Positions 2,949 to 19,830 of a DNA stretch of 25,515 nt are shown here, piece after piece. The position numbers and the translations under genes are program-made. The first letter of the stretch is position 1; every line of letters begins with the position of its first letter. Below the pieces are notes generated by a model. That model did not search any database, was not told the DNA's origin, and saw only the letters and a list, made by a program, of their open reading frames with translations. This stretch comes from a virus (Duplodnaviria > Heunggongvirae > Uroviricota > Caudoviricetes): IMG/VR virus record IMGVR_UViG_2609459834_000009, positions 1 to 25,515 of that record; one strand, given 5' to 3'.

Positions 2949-3245
2949 ATGCTGACGAAAGAACCATCATTTGCATCGCTGCTGGTAAAACAAAGCCCGG
3001 CAATGCACTACGGTCACGGCTGGATCACGGGTGAGGATGGAAAACGCTGGCATCCATGTCATTCACAAGATGAATTGCTGTCTGAATTGACCACGAGGAA
3101 ACGGAGAAAGTCCAAATGTATGCGGCAGAAAGTGAAGTGGTTTATCAGTTTCGTTACAGAGGGGAGAGTTATTCAGTACCTGAAGATGATTTGCTCTGTT
3201 GCTATCCGTCATTGTCGGGCGATGGCAGTTACTTTTTCACGTTAA
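2949..3245 (+). CDS. Hypothetical early protein (fil-position ORF); 3' portion doubtful
   Basis: ATG at 2949 with GAGGTG RBS. N-terminal 55 aa look protein-like; the C-terminal part overlaps the next ORF in another frame and looks like read-through. Confidence 0.3.
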   Translation: MLTKEPSFASLLVKQSPAMHYGHGWITGEDGKRWHPCHSQDELLSELTTRKRRKSKCMRQKVKWFISFVTEGRVIQYLKMICSVAIRHCRAMAVTFSR

Positions 3246-5086: not shown

Positions 5087-7497
5087 GTCATGCCGATATG
5101 AACAACTGCTGCGGCTTTAACGAGGCTGCCGCAGCATTCTCATGGAACAGCCCGAAAAAGGCCATTAACCCTTATCTGGACCCGGCGGAAGTTGCGCCGG
5201 TTTCTACGCTTTCAAACCTGATCACTCTGTACGCTGCCGATAACGAGCAGGAACAGTTGCGCCGCGAGGCACTGAGTGATCAGGTCTGGGAGCGTTATTT
5301 CTTTAATGAATCACGTGATCCTGTCCAGCGCGAAATGGAGCAGGATAAGCTCATTAGCCGGGCAAAGCTGGCGCATGAGCAGCAGCGTTTTAATTCAGAC
5401 ATGGTCATTCTGGCGGACGTCAACGCCCAGCCTTCCCATATCAGCAAGCCGCTGATGCAACGTATTGAATACTTCAGCAGCCTGGGCAGGCCAAAGGCTT
5501 ATTCCCGCTATTTACGTGAGACGATTAAGCCATGTCTGGAACGACTGGAGCATGTACGCGACAGTCAGCTATCTGCATCTTTTCGCTTTATGGCAAGCCA
5601 TGAAGGGCTGGACGGCCTGCTGATCCTGCCTGAAATGAGTCAGGATCAGGTGAAACGCCTGTCCACCCTGGTAGCTGCGCATATGAGTATGTGCCTTGAT
5701 GCAGCTTGTGGTGATTTGTATGCCACCGATGACGTTAAGCCAGAAGAAATCCGCAAGACATGGGAAAAGGTGGCAGCGGAAACCCTGCGTCTGGATGTCA
5801 TCCCACCTGCGTTTGAGCAACTCCGTCGGAAAAGAAACCGCCGTAAACCCGTGCCCTATGAACTCATTCCGGGTTCGCTGGCGCGTATGTTGTGCGCCGA
5901 CTGGTGGTACCGGAAATTATGGAAGATGCGTTGCGAATGGCGGGAAGAGCAGTTGCGCGCTGTTTGCCTGGTCAGCAAAAAAGCATCTCCTTATGTCAGC
6001 TATGAAGCCGTGATGCATAAACGTGAGCAGCGCCGTAAGTCGCTGGAGTTTTTCCGTTCTCATGAACTGGTGAACGAAGACGGCGACACGCTGGACATGG
6101 AGGATGTGGTAAACGCCAGCAGCAGCAACCCTGCGCATCGCCGCAATGAGATGATGGCCTGTGTTAAAGGTCTGGAGCTTATCGCGGAAATGCGCGGTGA
6201 CTGCGCCGTTTTCTACACTATCACCTGTCCGTCGCGTTTCCATTCCACGCTAAATAACGGCAGACCAAACCCGACCTGGACAAACGCGACGGTAAGACAA
6301 AGCAGCGATTATCTGGTCGGCATGTTTGCTGCATTTCGTAAGGCGATGCACAAAGCCGGGTTGCGCTGGTATGGCGTGCGGGTGGCTGAGCCGCATCATG
6401 ATGGCACAGTTCACTGGCACCTGTTGTGTTTCATGCGCAAAAAAGACCGCCGTGCCATCACTGCATTACTGCGTAAGTTTGCCATCCGTGAAGACCGCGA
6501 GGAGCTGGGCAATAACACTGGGCCGCGCTTTAAGTCTGAGTTGATTAACCCGCGCAAAGGAACGCCGACAAGCTACATCGCGAAATATATCAGTAAGAAC
6601 ATTGACGGTCGTGGTCTGGCTGGCGAGATCAGCAAGGAAACGGGTAAATCTCTGCGTGATAACGCTGAATACGTGAATGCCTGGGCGTCTCTGCATCGTG
6701 TTCAGCAATTCCGCTTCTTTGGTATTCCGGGGCGTCAGGCTTACCGTGAACTTCGCTTGCTGGCTGGTCAGGCGGCAAGGCAACAGGGTGACAAAAAAGC
6801 AGGTGCGCCGGTACTGGATAACCCGCGTCTTGATGCCATTCTGGCTGCTGCTGATGCTGGTTGTTTTGCCACCTACATCATGAAGCAGAGCGGCGTACTG
6901 GTTCCCCGTAAATATCACCTCATCAGAACCGCTTATGAAATCAACGAAGAGCCGACCGCCTATGGCGATCACGGCATTCGTATTTATGGCATCTGGTCAC
7001 CCATTGCAGAGGGCAAGATCTGCACTCATGCAGTGAAGTGGAAAATGGTTCGTAAAGCCGTTGACGTTCAGGAGGCGGCAGCCGACCAGGGCGCTTGCGC
7101 CCCTTGGACTCGTGGCAATAACTGTCCCCTTGCTGAAAATTTGAACCAACAAGGGAAAGACAAATCAGCTGATGGGGATACCAGGACGGACATTACCCGC
7201 ATGGATGACAAGGAGTTGCACGATTACCTGCACAGTATGAGCAAAAAAGAGCGCCGGGAACTGGCTGCAAGGTTACGCCTGGTGAAGCCGAAACGGCGTA
7301 AAGACTACAAACAGCGAATTACAGACCATCAGCGACAGCAGCTCGTCTATGAACTGAAGTCCAGAGGATTTGATGGCAGCGAGAAAGAGGTCGATTTACT
7401 CCTTCGCGGCGGCAGTATTCCGTCAGGAGCAGGCCTGCGTATCTTCTATCGGAACCAGCGTTTGCAGGAAGATGATAAGTGGCGAAACCTGTATTAA
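5083..7497 (+). CDS. A: Replication initiation endonuclease (P2 gene A family, rolling-circle)
   Basis: 804-aa product with HUH-like motif (HWHLLCF) and YIAKYISKN active-site tyrosine region; ATGA overlap with dam stop. Confidence 0.85.
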
Positions 7498-8218: not shown

Positions 8219-8242
8219 GCCCGCCAGAACTGGCGGGCTTTT
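8219..8242 (+). terminator. Rho-independent terminator after the SOS module
   Basis: GCCCGCCA-gaac-TGGCGGGC hairpin followed by TTTT. Confidence 0.6.
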
Positions 8243-8287
8243 GCGTAGATCATGCAGGTGCATGAAAACCACTACATAAAGCGGGCA

Positions 8288-9302: not shown

Positions 9303-9458
9303 CGAGAGGTTTATCATTAAGGTCAACCTCTGGATGTTGTTTCGGCATCCTGCATTGAATCTGAGTTACTGTCTGTTTTCCTTGTTGGAACGGAGAGCAT
9401 CGCCTGATGCTCTCCGAGCCAACCAGGAAACCCGTTTTTTCTGACGTAAGGGTGCGCA
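9290..9458 (+). ncRNA. msr-msd: Retron msr-msd non-coding RNA (template/primer for msDNA)
   Basis: Flanked by 12-nt inverted repeats a1 TGCGCACCCTTA (9290-9301) and a2 TAAGGGTGCGCA (9447-9458); internal msr hairpin AGAGGTT/AACCTCT and long imperfect msd stem around GGAGAGCATC-gcct-GATGCTCTCC; sits directly upstream of the RT gene. Matches my recollection of the Ec86 ncRNA. Confidence 0.85.
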
Positions 9459-9464
9459 ACTTTC

Positions 9465-10427
9465 ATGAAATCCGCTGAATATTTGAACACTTTTAGATTG
9501 AGAAATCTCGGCCTACCTGTCATGAACAATTTGCATGACATGTCTAAGGCGACTCGCATATCTGTTGAAACACTTCGGTTGTTAATCTATACAGCTGATT
9601 TTCGCTATAGGATCTACACTGTAGAAAAGAAAGGCCCAGAGAAGAGAATGAGAACCATTTACCAACCTTCTCGAGAACTTAAAGCCTTACAAGGATGGGT
9701 TCTACGTAACATTTTAGATAAACTGTCGTCATCTCCTTTTTCTATTGGATTTGAAAAGCACCAATCTATTTTGAATAATGCTACCCCGCATATTGGGGCA
9801 AACTTTATACTGAATATTGATTTGGAGGATTTTTTCCCAAGTTTAACTGCTAACAAAGTTTTTGGAGTGTTCCATTCTCTTGGTTATAATCGACTAATAT
9901 CTTCAGTTTTGACAAAAATATGTTGTTATAAAAATCTGCTACCACAAGGTGCTCCATCATCACCTAAATTAGCTAATCTAATATGTTCTAAACTTGATTA
10001 TCGTATTCAGGGTTATGCAGGTAGTCGGGGCTTGATATATACGAGATATGCCGATGATCTCACCTTATCTGCACAGTCTATGAAAAAGGTTGTTAAAGCA
10101 CGTGATTTTTTATTTTCTATAATCCCAAGTGAAGGATTGGTTATTAACTCAAAAAAAACTTGTATTAGTGGGCCTCGTAGTCAGAGGAAAGTTACAGGTT
10201 TAGTTATTTCACAAGAGAAAGTTGGGATAGGTAGAGAAAAATATAAAGAAATTAGAGCAAAGATACATCATATATTTTGCGGTAAGTCTTCTGAGATAGA
10301 ACACGTTAGGGGATGGTTGTCATTTATTTTAAGTGTGGATTCAAAAAGCCATAGAAGATTAATAACTTATATTAGCAAATTAGAAAAAAAATATGGAAAG
10401 AACCCTTTAAATAAAGCGAAGACCTAA
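9465..10427 (+). CDS. ret: Retron-type reverse transcriptase
   Basis: 320-aa product with RT motifs QGAPSSPKLANL and YADD, plus the retron-characteristic VTG motif (RKVTGLVI). Confidence 0.9.
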   Translation: MKSAEYLNTFRLRNLGLPVMNNLHDMSKATRISVETLRLLIYTADFRYRIYTVEKKGPEKRMRTIYQPSRELKALQGWVLRNILDKLSSSPFSIGFEKHQSILNNATPHIGANFILNIDLEDFFPSLTANKVFGVFHSLGYNRLISSVLTKICCYKNLLPQGAPSSPKLANLICSKLDYRIQGYAGSRGLIYTRYADDLTLSAQSMKKVVKARDFLFSIIPSEGLVINSKKTCISGPRSQRKVTGLVISQEKVGIGREKYKEIRAKIHHIFCGKSSEIEHVRGWLSFILSVDSKSHRRLITYISKLEKKYGKNPLNKAKT

Positions 10428-11470: not shown

Positions 11471-13236
11471 CAAAAAATCTCCACAATATTGCTGGTATTG
11501 GCGGATTCGCCCTGCAGCGGTTCGTTAAACAGTGCGTGCATGGTTGCCCAGGCCAGATCGGCATGGCTGGCTTCTTCGCTGCGGCTGGCTTCATAGGTTG
11601 GGCGGTTGCCGCTGGCGGTGGTGGCGCGACGGATTGCCATAAATGACTGCGCTATGTCGGTGTGTCCGGCGTCAAACTCCAGACGACGGTGACTGATAAT
11701 GTCGTAGGCCTTGAGTACCAGGGCGTTTTTAACGTTGGGGTTGTAGACAAACTCCCGGACGGCTGGAAAAAACGCTTTCACGTTCTCGTAAACCCCGTGG
11801 CCGACACCTGTCGAGTCGATGCCGATGTAGGTCACGTTGTACTGTTCGGTCAGTTTTTTGATGGCGTCAGCCTGGGCGCGAAAGTCCATTCCGCGCCACT
11901 GGTGACGCTCAAGAATGCGGAACTTGCCGCCCGGCACGGCTGGCGGTGCTACCACCACGCATCCGGCGCTGTCGCCATTCTGCGTACCTTTCGCCGGGTC
12001 ATAACCGATCCATACTTCGCGCCAGCCAAACGGGCGCAGGGCCAGTGCATGAAAGTCAGTCCAGACTTCCCAGCTGTCTACCATGCACGCCTGCAGCTCG
12101 CTGAGCGGGAACACGGACGCGAGATCGTCCACAAACTCGCACATCAGCAGGTTCTGGTATTCGTCCGGGCTGTACTCCATGCGCAACTGGTCAAGGTCGA
12201 ACAGGTTACAGCCGCCGCGCACCGCATCTTCCACGGTGACTATCTGGCGGTATTGCCCGTCTGCGCACAGCAGGCCGGGGGCCAGATTGCTGTGGGACAG
12301 GTCGATGTCCACCTTATCGGCTTTGTTGCGCCCACGGTTGAACAGCGCACCGGACCAGAACGGATAAGCACTGTGTGTCAGGCTGGATGGCGTGGAAAAA
12401 TAGGTTTGTCGCCATTTTTTGTGAATAGCCATACCGGAAGCCACTTTGCGCAGCTCCTGGAATTTCGGTATCCAGAAATATTCATCCAGATACAGGTTGC
12501 CGTGGTAACTCTGGGCCGTGCGGGCATTGGTGCCGAGGAAGTAAAGCGTGGCCCCGTTGGGAAGCACCATCGGATCGCCTTTCAGCTCCACCTCCACTTC
12601 TTTGGCGAAGTCGATGATGTACTGCTTAAAGACGTGGGCCTGTGCCTTACTGGCAGAAAGGAAAATCTGGTTACGTCCGGTAAGCAGGGCGTCAATCAGG
12701 GCTTCACGGGCAAAATAGAAGGTCGCGCCGATCTGGCGTGACTTCAGCAGGTTGCGGATGCGGTTGGTTTTTCCGGCTTCCCACCAGTGGCGCTGGTAGT
12801 TGAACATGGAGGAATGGAAAATTTCTTCCAGCTTCTCAATCTGTTCATCGGTGAAAACATTCTTTTCAGGCTGACGGCGTGGGCCTTTGTTGCGGTTGGC
12901 GACGTTAGGGTTTAAGTCAGCTTCGTTGCCGCCATTGTTAAACTTGCCGATCCGCGCGTGGCGCTCCGACTGGCGCGCCAGCAGGTCAATCTCTTTGAAA
13001 TCTTTCCCTTCTTTGTGCTCCTTCATGATGAGCTGGCAGTAGCGTGCGGCGGTGGTGAGCTGCATCTGATCCAGCGGCCCATAGTCACCCCACTTGTCGC
13101 GTTTTTTCCAGCTGTGAACGGTTGCAGCTTTCTCGCCCAGCATTTCAGCAATGCGGGCTACGCGGTATCCCTGAAAGTACAGCAGCATGGCCTGCCGACG
13201 GGGATCGAGATCTGCGGGTGTCAGTGTGGTGTTCAT
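11470..13236 (-). CDS. P: Terminase large (ATPase) subunit (P2 gpP family)
   Basis: 588-aa product; size and position upstream of portal on the minus strand as in P2. Confidence 0.9.
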   Translation of the reverse strand: MNTTLTPADLDPRRQAMLLYFQGYRVARIAEMLGEKAATVHSWKKRDKWGDYGPLDQMQLTTAARYCQLIMKEHKEGKDFKEIDLLARQSERHARIGKFNNGGNEADLNPNVANRNKGPRRQPEKNVFTDEQIEKLEEIFHSSMFNYQRHWWEAGKTNRIRNLLKSRQIGATFYFAREALIDALLTGRNQIFLSASKAQAHVFKQYIIDFAKEVEVELKGDPMVLPNGATLYFLGTNARTAQSYHGNLYLDEYFWIPKFQELRKVASGMAIHKKWRQTYFSTPSSLTHSAYPFWSGALFNRGRNKADKVDIDLSHSNLAPGLLCADGQYRQIVTVEDAVRGGCNLFDLDQLRMEYSPDEYQNLLMCEFVDDLASVFPLSELQACMVDSWEVWTDFHALALRPFGWREVWIGYDPAKGTQNGDSAGCVVVAPPAVPGGKFRILERHQWRGMDFRAQADAIKKLTEQYNVTYIGIDSTGVGHGVYENVKAFFPAVREFVYNPNVKNALVLKAYDIISHRRLEFDAGHTDIAQSFMAIRRATTASGNRPTYEASRSEEASHADLAWATMHALFNEPLQGESANTSNIVEIF

Positions 13237-13282
13237 GGCACAAACCTACAACCTTGAATGAATGCTTTCCCCGCCTGCGGTT

Positions 13283-13300
13283 TGTGTGGTTGTCGGTACA
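13283..13300. promoter_or_regulatory. TGT-N12-ACA dyad in the P/O divergent promoter region (candidate late-activator site)
   Basis: TGTgtggttgtcggtACA in the 142-bp intergenic region between divergent P and O genes; form matches the P2-family late promoter activator element. Confidence 0.4.
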
Positions 13301-13378
13301 AATACCGCGCATTGTTTCACTGCCCCCATCACCGCAACCATAAGGCTCCAGTAAGTTTTTTCTAACGGAGCACGGCTC

Positions 13379-14212
13379 ATGACAGTGAAAGCAAAGCGTT
13401 TTCGCATCGGGGTGGAAGGTGCCACCACCGACGGACGCGAAATCCAGCGTGAATGGCTGGAACAGATGGCAGCCAGCTACAACCCGGCGGTGTATACCGC
13501 GCTGATTAACCTTGAGCACATCAAGTCTTATCTGCCGGACAGCACCTTTAACCGCTACGGTAAGGTGACGGCGCTGTTTGCTGAAGAAATCACGGAAGGT
13601 CCGCTGGCAGGCAAGATGGCGCTGTATGCCGACGTTGAGCCAACGGAGTCCCTGGTGGAACTGGTGAAAAAAGGCCAGAAATTATTCACCTCTATGGAAG
13701 TCAGCCCGAAGTTTGCTGATACGGGCAAAGCCTACCTGGTCGGCCTGGCAGCCACTGATGACCCTGCCAGTCTGGGCACTGAAATGCTGACATTCAGCGC
13801 CAGTGCAGCCCATAACCCGCTGGCAAACCGCAAGCAGAATCCCGCCAATCTCTTTACAGCCGCAGAGGAAACGGTGATCGAACTGGAAGAAATCCAGGAG
13901 GACAAGCCGTCCCTGTTTGCCCGTGTCACGGCGCTGTTCACCAAAAAAGAGCAGTCCGATGACGCCCGGTTCTCTGATGTGCATAAGGCCGTGGAACTGG
14001 TCGCCACTGAGCAGCAGAACCTGAGTGCGCGCACCGAAAAATCCCTGTCTGAGCAGGAAGAGCGCCTGTCTGAGCTGGAGACAGCCCTGCAGGCACAGCA
14101 GACCGCCTTTAACGAACTGGTGGACAAGCTGAGCCAAGAAGACAGCCGCCAGGACTACCGCCAGCGTGCAACAGGCGGTAACGCCCCCGCTGACACTCTG
14201 ACCAATTGCTGA
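13379..14212 (+). CDS. O: Capsid scaffolding protein (P2 gpO family)
   Basis: 277-aa product; first gene of the rightward capsid operon; acidic coiled-coil-like C-terminal half. Confidence 0.85.
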   Translation: MTVKAKRFRIGVEGATTDGREIQREWLEQMAASYNPAVYTALINLEHIKSYLPDSTFNRYGKVTALFAEEITEGPLAGKMALYADVEPTESLVELVKKGQKLFTSMEVSPKFADTGKAYLVGLAATDDPASLGTEMLTFSASAAHNPLANRKQNPANLFTAAEETVIELEEIQEDKPSLFARVTALFTKKEQSDDARFSDVHKAVELVATEQQNLSARTEKSLSEQEERLSELETALQAQQTAFNELVDKLSQEDSRQDYRQRATGGNAPADTLTNC

Positions 14213-18350: not shown

Positions 18351-18744
18351 AGCGGTGCCTTATGTCCGCAATAACCCGGACAAACTGCATCTGTTTGTGG
18401 ATAACGGTTCGCTGGTTGCCACGGGGGCCGGCTCCATGTCATGGGAGTACCGTTATACCCTGAACGTGGTGATAGAGGATTTCAGCGGCGACCAGAATCT
18501 GCTGATGGCCCCGGTTTTACTGTGGCTTCGGGATAACCAGCCCGATGCCATCAATAACCCGGCGTTACGGGAAAAGCTATTCACCTTTGATGTGGATATT
18601 TTGCGCAACGATGTCTGTGATATCAGCCTTAATCTGCAACTGACGGAACGTGTGCTGGTCAGCACTGACGGCAGTGTGTCGAGCGTTGAAGCTGTAGCAG
18701 AACCCGATGAACCTGAAGAAATGTGGACGGTGAAACGTGGCTGA
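18313..18744 (+). CDS. R: Tail completion protein R (P2 gpR family)
   Basis: GTG at 18313 with AGGAG RBS 7 nt upstream; product aligns with P2 gpR as I recall it (FVDNGS..., RYTLNV, LWLR.NQPD). Confidence 0.75.
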   Translation: MNKPQSLRHALNKAVPYVRNNPDKLHLFVDNGSLVATGAGSMSWEYRYTLNVVIEDFSGDQNLLMAPVLLWLRDNQPDAINNPALREKLFTFDVDILRNDVCDISLNLQLTERVLVSTDGSVSSVEAVAEPDEPEEMWTVKRG

Positions 18745-19183
18745 ACTGCAGAAGGTGGACGACTGGCTGAGTGCCTTGCTGGCGAATCTGGAACCAGCCA
18801 CGAGAAGCCGTATGATGCGCCAGCTGGCGCAGGAATTGCGCCGGACACAGCAGCAGAATATCAGGATGCAGCGCAATCCAGATGGCAGCAGTTATGAACC
18901 GCGCAGGGTAACAGCACGCAGCAAGAAGGGGCGCATCAAACGTCAGATGTTTGCAAAGCTGCGCACCACAAAATACCTGAAAACTGCCGCCAGCGCCGAC
19001 TCTGCCAGCGTACAGTTTGAAGGCAAGGTGCAGCGTATTGCCCGTGTTCACCATTACGGCCTGCGTGATCGCGTCAGTCGCAAAGGACCGGAGGTCCGTT
19101 ACGCAGAGCGCCGCCTGCTGGGTGTAAATGATGATGTTGAGGCAATGACCCGCGACATGATTCTGCAATGGCTGGCGGGGTGA
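18737..19183 (+). CDS. S: Tail completion / virion morphogenesis protein S (P2 gpS family)
   Basis: 148-aa product (DDWLSALLANLEP...) resembling P2 gpS; GTG start overlapping R stop. Confidence 0.75.
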   Translation: MAELQKVDDWLSALLANLEPATRSRMMRQLAQELRRTQQQNIRMQRNPDGSSYEPRRVTARSKKGRIKRQMFAKLRTTKYLKTAASADSASVQFEGKVQRIARVHHYGLRDRVSRKGPEVRYAERRLLGVNDDVEAMTRDMILQWLAG

Positions 19184-19187
19184 TCTT

Positions 19188-19205
19188 TGTATCAGCACTG
19201 ATACA
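19188..19205. promoter_or_regulatory. TGT-N12-ACA near-perfect palindrome between S and V (candidate late-activator site and/or S terminator hairpin)
   Basis: TGTATCAGcaCTGATACA directly after the S stop; no U-tract follows. Confidence 0.35.
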
Positions 19206-19251
19206 AGTTGCAGCACTGCCGCCTTTCTTCCCCTGATGGCAACCTTTCCCT

Positions 19252-19830
19252 ATGAACGCACAATTAACCGAAATCATGCGCCTTATCACCAATCTGATCC
19301 GCACAGGTGTAGTCACCGAAGTGGACCGGGAAAACTGGCTTTGTCGGGTGAAAACGGGCGACCTTGAAACCAACTGGATTAACTGGCTGACGCTGCGCGC
19401 GGGTAATGCCCGCACATGGTGGAAACCATCGGAAGGTGAGCAGGTGGTGCTGCTGAGTCTGGGAGGCAATCTGGAAACCGCGTTTGCGCTGCCCGCCATC
19501 TATTCGAATCAGCTCGCGCCACCGTCGACGTCGGCGGACGCCTGCGTGACAGAACATCCTGACGGTGGCTGGTTTGAATATGAACCCGCCACCGGGCGCT
19601 GGTATGTCAGGGGCATCAAATCAATGGTCATTGAGGCCGCTGACAACATCACCATGAAAACCAGTGAGTTTGTACTGGAGGCTGACCGCACGCGCATTAA
19701 CAGCGAAGTGGTGATCAATGGTGGCGTTACCCAGGGCGGCGGAGCGATGAGTTCTAACGGGATCGTGGTTGATGCGCATCAGCATACTGGCGTCCTGAAA
19801 GGCGGCGACACAACCGGAGGCCCGGTATGA
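19252..19830 (+). CDS. V: Baseplate spike/assembly protein V (P2 gpV family)
   Basis: 192-aa product aligning with P2 gpV from the first Met (NLIRTGVVTEVD, TWWKPSEGEQVVLLSLGG). Confidence 0.85.
   Translation: MNAQLTEIMRLITNLIRTGVVTEVDRENWLCRVKTGDLETNWINWLTLRAGNARTWWKPSEGEQVVLLSLGGNLETAFALPAIYSNQLAPPSTSADACVTEHPDGGWFEYEPATGRWYVRGIKSMVIEAADNITMKTSEFVLEADRTRINSEVVINGGVTQGGGAMSSNGIVVDAHQHTGVLKGGDTTGGPV

Follow-up and report, generated by a model that had tools for sequence, protein, structure and literature searches.

TGT-N12-ACA is the consensus of the four Ogr-dependent late promoters of phage P2 (PMC3931495). In the P2 RefSeq record, the activator site of pV is annotated at 10239-10266 (centre 10252.5) and the transcription start of the V operon at 10308, 55.5 bp away. 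Since this annotated start is also the first base of the V coding sequence, the V mRNA of P2 is leaderless; with reference to Christie and Calendar (1985), P2 is listed as one of the few sources from which leaderless genes are known in E. coli (PMC4633059). The P2 record also has one activator site (3057-3087) for the divergent promoters pO and pP, which start 55 and 56 bp on either side of it, with a P leader of 23 nt. In the record of phage 186, one site for the B protein is given for the divergent promoters p12 and pV and another for pJ, with centres 54.5-58.5 bp from the annotated starts. Fels-2, SopE-phi and the Felsduovirus-like prophages of Klebsiella encode an Ogr_Delta protein; no transcript mapping for them was found in the searchable literature.

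The S/V intergenic region

The window (the whole stretch of DNA analysed here, 25,515 nucleotides) is a P2/186/Fels-2-like prophage (Peduoviridae) with the gene order int-cI-...-A-...-Q-P / O-N-M-L-X-lysis-R-S / V-W-J-I-H-G. Over the S/V kilobase, its identity is 97% with Peduoviridae phages of Klebsiella and E. coli, and 84% with Fels-2 and SopE-phi. The V protein is 86% identical to Fels-2 gpV and 46-48% identical to P2 V and 186 Orf32. The gap between S and V is of the compact form, with 68 bp (19184-19251). The features of the junction are as follows.

18737..19183, plus strand: gene S (tail completion; Pfam Phage_tail_S), the last gene of the O operon
19187..19206, symmetric (no strand): predicted activator-binding dyad of the V-operon late promoter (PV equivalent), TTGTATCAG ca CTGATACAA, fitting TTGT-N12-ACAA
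19237..19245, plus strand: predicted extended -10 element TGgCAACCT (TGGCAACCT), with TG at -15/-14 and the hexamer CAACCT at -12 to -7
19252..19254, plus strand: ATG start codon of V, its A being the predicted transcription start (from the -10 geometry and the P2 annotation)
19252..19830, plus strand: gene V (baseplate spike; Pfam Phage_base_V and Apex motif), the first gene of the V-W-J-I-H-G late operon

The letters at 19188-19205, TGTATCAGcaCTGATACA, form an exact TGT-N12-ACA, the dyad symmetry of P2-type late promoters. A near-perfect palindrome had been described at these positions in a first-pass annotation of the window; the coordinates are right, and the inverted repeat runs one base further on each side, to 19187-19206, where it becomes a perfect 9 + 9 palindrome (arms TTGTATCAG and CTGATACAA of 9 nt, 100% complementary, separated by a gap of 2 nt). 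The dyad starts 3 bp after the TGA of S (19181-19183) and ends 45 bp before the ATG of V. Its centre, at 19196.5, is 55.5 bp from the A of that ATG, a distance that had been estimated at about 55 bp. A second dyad lies between the divergent genes P and O (see below). The first-pass annotation had claimed that the V and P dyads are equally spaced from their start codons and had named a recount as a check on this; the recount gives 55.5 bp in each case, and the equality is exact.

The likeness to PV of P2 is close. In both phages the dyad is directly 5' of V, at the head of V-W-J-I-H-G, with 55.5 bp between its centre and the first base of V, and in both there is no -35 element, no Shine-Dalgarno sequence and a -10 hexamer of CAAyCT type (CAATCT in P2, CAACCT in the window). 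The differences are of detail: the P2 dyad is imperfect (TGTTGTCTGGTAGTTCTACAA), whereas that of the window is a perfect 9 + 9 palindrome containing an exact TGT-N12-ACA; orf30 and a separate terminator stand between S and V in P2, in place of the 68-bp gap; and the -10 of the window is one base nearer to the ATG. With phage 186, the window has in common a compact junction between S and the V homologue (69 bp in 186) and a single site common to the divergent terminase and scaffold promoters; its activator would be of the same family as B of 186, a C4 zinc finger. The site upstream of orf32 in 186, however, has one good half-site only (TGTGTGAACCACCACCGG) and is unannotated in the 186 record, and the P homologue of 186 has a 23-nt leader with a Shine-Dalgarno sequence, whereas P of the window is predicted to be leaderless. 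In Fels-2, SopE-phi and the Klebsiella Felsduovirus-like prophages, the S/V intergenic region is orthologous and the spacings at P, O and V are the same; the Fels-2 dyad (TTGTGCCActgcTGGCACAA) differs from that of the window at inner bases only. An S/V intergenic region identical to that of the window is present in phage KP12 and in 45 loci of IMG/VR.

Conservation upstream of V

A total of 162 V-upstream regions was compared: 80 IMG/VR loci with V 97-98% identical; 80 loci with V 42-97% identical, taken as one genome per species (Escherichia, Citrobacter, Enterobacter, Pantoea, Erwinia, Klebsiella, Xenorhabdus and other genera); and P2, 186 and Fels-2. Clustering on the last 100 bp gave 46 classes that are less than 55% identical to one another. 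In 39 of the 46 classes there is an exact TGT-N12-ACA whose centre is 54.5-57.5 bp from the first base of V, and in 27 of them this distance is exactly 55.5 bp. Elsewhere in the 300 bp upstream of V, only five other exact copies occur, of which three are explained variants.

Within the 27 classes at -55.5, conservation is confined to two blocks. In the dyad, TGT at -64 to -62 and ACA at -49 to -47 are invariant (27/27 each), flanked by T-65 (25/27) and A-46 (24/27). In the -10 region, A-11 and T-7 are invariant (27/27 each), and T-15 (18/27), G-14 (17/27) and C-12 (20/27) are preferred. No position beyond these is conserved, with a pyrimidine occurring at -1 in 22 of the 27 classes. In particular, there is no conservation around -35 across the classes, as expected of a promoter with a -10 and without a -35. 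These 27 classes contain no purine-rich Shine-Dalgarno sequence before V and no purine enrichment at -13 to -5. V starts with ATG in every class, and in the 27 classes the spacing between promoter and ATG is fixed to the nucleotide.

The half-sites of the 39 sites follow a loose consensus, TTGT-R-Y-S-R, as expected of a symmetric protein site. The dyad of the window is the most palindromic of the 39. This excess of symmetry falls outside the activator model, since the PV dyads of P2 and 186 are imperfect and an exact palindrome is not needed.

The exceptions fit the same promoter rule. In two prophages, of Scandinavium and Tatumella (L098 and L110; about 2430-2500), the dyad is centred at -68.5, the -10 (TATAGT) is at the corresponding distance from it, and V is preceded by a 13-nt leader with a GAGG Shine-Dalgarno sequence. 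In the Xenorhabdus loci L158, L160 and L163 (about 2400-2503), the V promoter is retained, and after it comes what is left of an ORF, about 10 codons (ATGAATACTCAACTC...), whose TGA overlaps the real V ATG. This leaderless mini-ORF has the appearance of a recombination scar, and it may couple translation to that of V.

In many relatives with V 97-98% identical, S and V are separated by 550-1065 bp of A+T-rich DNA, unrelated from one to the next, at the place of orf30 in P2 (in the series L002-L041; for example, L003, L016, L024 and L041). In these cargo-bearing relatives each dyad adjoins V at the standard distance and none follows S; each cargo locus has its own, different TTGT-N12-ACAA at -55.5 from V. 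In some of them, canonical terminators follow S in place of the dyad. The S/V junction, on this comparison, is a hotspot for cargo insertion, with the promoter kept or rebuilt at every insertion.

The probable V promoter and a predicted leaderless V mRNA

In the window, -11A of the predicted -10 is at 19241 and -7T at 19245, and the A of the V start codon follows the hexamer after 6 nt. A search of 18900-19500 for a full sigma-70 promoter, with both hexamers, gave none. V has the features of a leaderless-type gene: an ATG start, no Shine-Dalgarno sequence, and a fixed distance between promoter and ATG. The absence of an obvious Shine-Dalgarno sequence before V and P, remarked on in the first-pass annotation, is borne out: before V, ggcaacctttccct has no run of purines, and before P, the AGG of gtaggtttgtgcc is inside the predicted -10 and is not conserved.

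As -11A and -7T of TGnCAnnnT are fixed relative to the start codon, position +1 can be placed on the A of the ATG. The first-pass annotation had proposed an activator site at the canonical upstream position, with a very short leader. The site is supported by pV of P2 at 55.5 bp, by the 39 of 46 classes and by the invariant -11A and -7T. The leader, for its part, is predicted to be absent and not merely short, because the P2 transcription start is the first base of V, the spacing of the dyad is conserved, and -11A and -7T do not vary. The V mRNA of the window's phage is thus predicted to be leaderless, with its start on the A at 19252.

Taken together, these sequence features make it very likely that the late promoter of the V operon, equivalent to PV of P2 and p32 of 186, has its upstream activator site in the S/V palindrome. 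By every feature that could be tested, the element appears to belong to the Ogr/B/Delta-dependent late promoters, with PV of P2 as its orthologue. For the window's phage, binding of the activator, the exact start and leaderless translation are what we infer.

The following sequence of events is proposed. At the onset of replication, the phage would make an activator of the Ogr/B/Pag/Delta family, a small zinc-finger protein whose gene is outside the window. This protein would bind the symmetric TTGT-N12-ACAA centred about 55 bp 5' of the transcription start and recruit the host sigma-70 RNA polymerase to the extended -10 (TGgCAACCT), which has no usable -35. Ogr of P2 works through the alpha subunit of RNA polymerase. 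The first transcribed base would be the A of the V start codon (19252), and the resulting leaderless mRNA would be translated without a Shine-Dalgarno sequence, as reported for V of P2. The second dyad (13282-13301) would act likewise for the divergent P and O promoters.

The arrangement at the S/V site is well known in P2 and its relatives, and the site is real but ordinary; it leaves the understanding of P2 late regulation unchanged. Its value is mainly for annotation. It marks the places of the V and P/O late promoters in a common type of enterobacterial prophage, and it accounts for the missing ribosome-binding sites of V and, probably, of P, so that the ATG start calls of these genes can be trusted. 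For P2-like phages the comparison yields a clear rule: TTGT-N12-ACAA has its centre 55.5 bp from a leaderless ATG, and -11A and -7T do not vary. With this rule, late promoters and leaderless starts could be called automatically.

The P/O dyad and the predicted start of P

The features between the divergent genes P and O are the following.

13282..13301, symmetric (no strand): predicted activator site, a dyad common to the divergent P and O late promoters, TTGTGTGGTTGTCGGTACAA, centre 13291.5
13243..13248, minus strand: predicted -10 hexamer TAGGTT of the P promoter, at -12 to -7 from the P ATG, with the start on the A at 13236
13336..13341, plus strand: candidate -10 of the O promoter, AACCAT (AAACAT in relatives)

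The letters at 13283-13300 are TGTGTGGTTGTCGGTACA. Measured from the centre of the dyad, the P ATG (13236, minus strand) is at 55.5 bp and the O ATG (13379) at 87.5 bp. On the O side, transcription would start near 13348, leaving a leader of about 31 nt with a GGAG Shine-Dalgarno sequence before the O ATG at 13379.

This region was compared in 54 distinct intergenic variants from metagenomes (P 87-100% identical as protein, all of one clade). The distance from the dyad centre to the P ATG is 55.5 bp in all 54, but on the O side values between 84.5 and 94.5 bp occur. At -12 to -7 of P, the relatives have TAGGTT, TATGTT, TAGGCT, TATTTT or TAGTCT, that is TAnnnT, with T-12, A-11 and T-7 fixed and varying bases between them. 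Because these inner bases vary, the AGG before P in the window is to be read as part of the -10 and not as a conserved Shine-Dalgarno sequence. In P2, 186 and PSP3, TAGCCT occurs at the same distance from the dyad and is followed by the mapped start and by a 23-nt leader with a GGCGAGG Shine-Dalgarno sequence. A scan of IMG/VR with P2 gpP returned P2-identical loci only and added no diversity.

The constant 55.5 bp to the P ATG, the invariant TAnnnT and a geometry between dyad and hexamer equal to that of the mapped PP promoter of P2 argue for a leaderless P. On balance, we favour the view that in the Fels-2-like clade (Felsduovirus/Dagavirus) P has lost its leader and is leaderless too, so that two of the four late operons, and not one, would start without a leader. 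The equal spacing at V and P has a real meaning, then, since in this clade P, like V, is predicted to lack a leader. A literature search linking "leaderless" with Fels-2 or with the terminase of P2-like phages returned nothing, which is no proof of novelty. A third TGT-N12-ACA in the window, at 13225-13242 (TGTGGTGTTCATGGCACA), overlaps the P ATG; Fels-2 has TGT...CCA there, and this copy was taken as due to chance.

Alternative readings of the palindrome

The first-pass annotation had also suggested that the palindrome might be the terminator of the O-to-S transcript. As an RNA hairpin, it would terminate, attenuate or stabilise the 3' end of that transcript, instead of or besides a role in activation. 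The palindrome does begin only 3 bp past the S stop codon, and the P2 record has an O-operon terminator just past S. The inner hairpin folds with -7.9 kcal/mol (z -3.3), and a composite hairpin of 54 nt, built from the dyad, the G-rich end of S before it and a C-rich stretch after it (19170-19229 of the window), with -25.4 kcal/mol (z -2.9), followed by UUUCUU; the minimum-energy folds are similar in Fels-2 and in several compact relatives. Yet the inner stem is A+T-rich, with three G/C pairs out of nine, and it is followed by GUUGCAG instead of a run of U; a scan with the terminator consensus gave nothing at the palindrome. The outer stem, once the dyad is swapped for a tetraloop, is no better than composition-matched shuffles of the flanks (z -0.36 in the window and -0.46 in Fels-2), and RNAalifold on 10 compact relatives retains the inner stem only. 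The six inner mirrored positions do not covary over the 39 independent sites (P 0.57-0.96 against column composition), and in cargo-bearing relatives the dyad adjoins V, with other sequences after S. A role as O-to-S terminator is thus unsupported: of the marks of a Rho-independent terminator, the palindrome has neither the G+C-rich stem with a T run nor linkage to the upstream gene with covariation, and its outer stem equals the shuffles. Because the dyad follows V, and not S, when cargo intervenes, the activator site is the favoured reading, and we consider a terminating or RNA-stabilising function improbable. The composite hairpin at 19170-19229 is probably incidental. A second role of the palindrome at the RNA level, as a hairpin on read-through RNA of the O operon in phages with a compact S/V junction, is a possibility with nothing specific in its favour. 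The window does have a canonical intrinsic terminator elsewhere, in the accessory region that separates Q from the replication genes (8219-8245): CCCGCCAG-aa-CTGGCGGG at 8219-8238, then CTTTTG. With its TTTT, it stands in contrast to the S/V palindrome.

A protein site could also belong to a regulator other than an Ogr-family activator, such as a CRP-like protein of the host or a phage repressor, for TGT...ACA half-sites are common to several helix-turn-helix regulators and the very string TGT-N12-ACA is used for the PpsR/CrtJ sites of purple bacteria. The CRP site, however, is TGTGA-N6-TCACA, that is TGT-N10-ACA, and the N12 spacing of the S/V dyad does not agree with a CRP/FNR site; PpsR and CrtJ are confined to photosynthetic bacteria. 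A CRP operator is thereby ruled out by spacing and a PpsR/CrtJ operator by host range. In this phage group, moreover, the motif occurs only before the late operons P/O, V and FI, at the positions annotated for Ogr and B in P2 and 186, which makes an operator of another regulator very improbable. As for mere chance, a window of this size is expected to contain about one perfect palindrome with 9-nt arms (three distinct ones are present, against 0.93 matches expected from shuffles), and TGT-N12-ACA by itself is unenriched in the window (4 matches; expectation 6.9). Of the 8-base form TTGT-N12-ACAA there are exactly two copies, where 0.53 would be expected. Both are in intergenic DNA at the head of late operons, of which the window has only two stretches, together 210 bp of its 25.5 kb; with one mismatch allowed, this form shows no enrichment in the window. 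Against chance there is above all the conservation to the nucleotide of its position in the 39 of 46 unrelated upstream classes, by which this reading is in practice refuted; the probability left to a functionless sequence is negligible. Since its position is conserved across unrelated upstream sequences, the S/V palindrome is not to be seen as a chance feature; the case comes mainly from the comparative data, and the window alone cannot prove function. Apart from these sites, the window contains at 9392-9415 a perfect hairpin with arms of 10 nt (GGAGAGCATC-gcct-GATGCTCTCC), with no adjoining T run on either strand.

The activator gene and the other late promoters

For the preferred reading, that of a late-promoter activator site, the gene of the activator is expected after D in such phages, beyond the right end of the window; with tblastn, no Ogr homologue was found in the window itself. 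KP12, which is 97% identical to the window over the tested S/V kilobase, and Fels-2 both have a gene for a protein of 72 aa with the pattern CX2CX22CX4C and a match to Pfam Ogr_Delta (PF04606; E 5e-22 and 3e-22, respectively). Dyads are found at the FI promoter as well (in KP12, Fels-2 and ST13-OXA48phi12.1), 78.5-85.5 bp from an ATG that has a good Shine-Dalgarno sequence. The motif is thus common to all late promoters of these phages, and a spacing of 55.5 bp to the ATG is found only at V and P. The FI dyad of Fels-2 (L083, about 7066-7083), TGTACCAGCACTGACACA, is identical to the V dyad of the window at 16 of 18 positions. Inner bases like ATCAGCACTGAT, this likeness suggests, may be near to the preferred site of the activator of the group.
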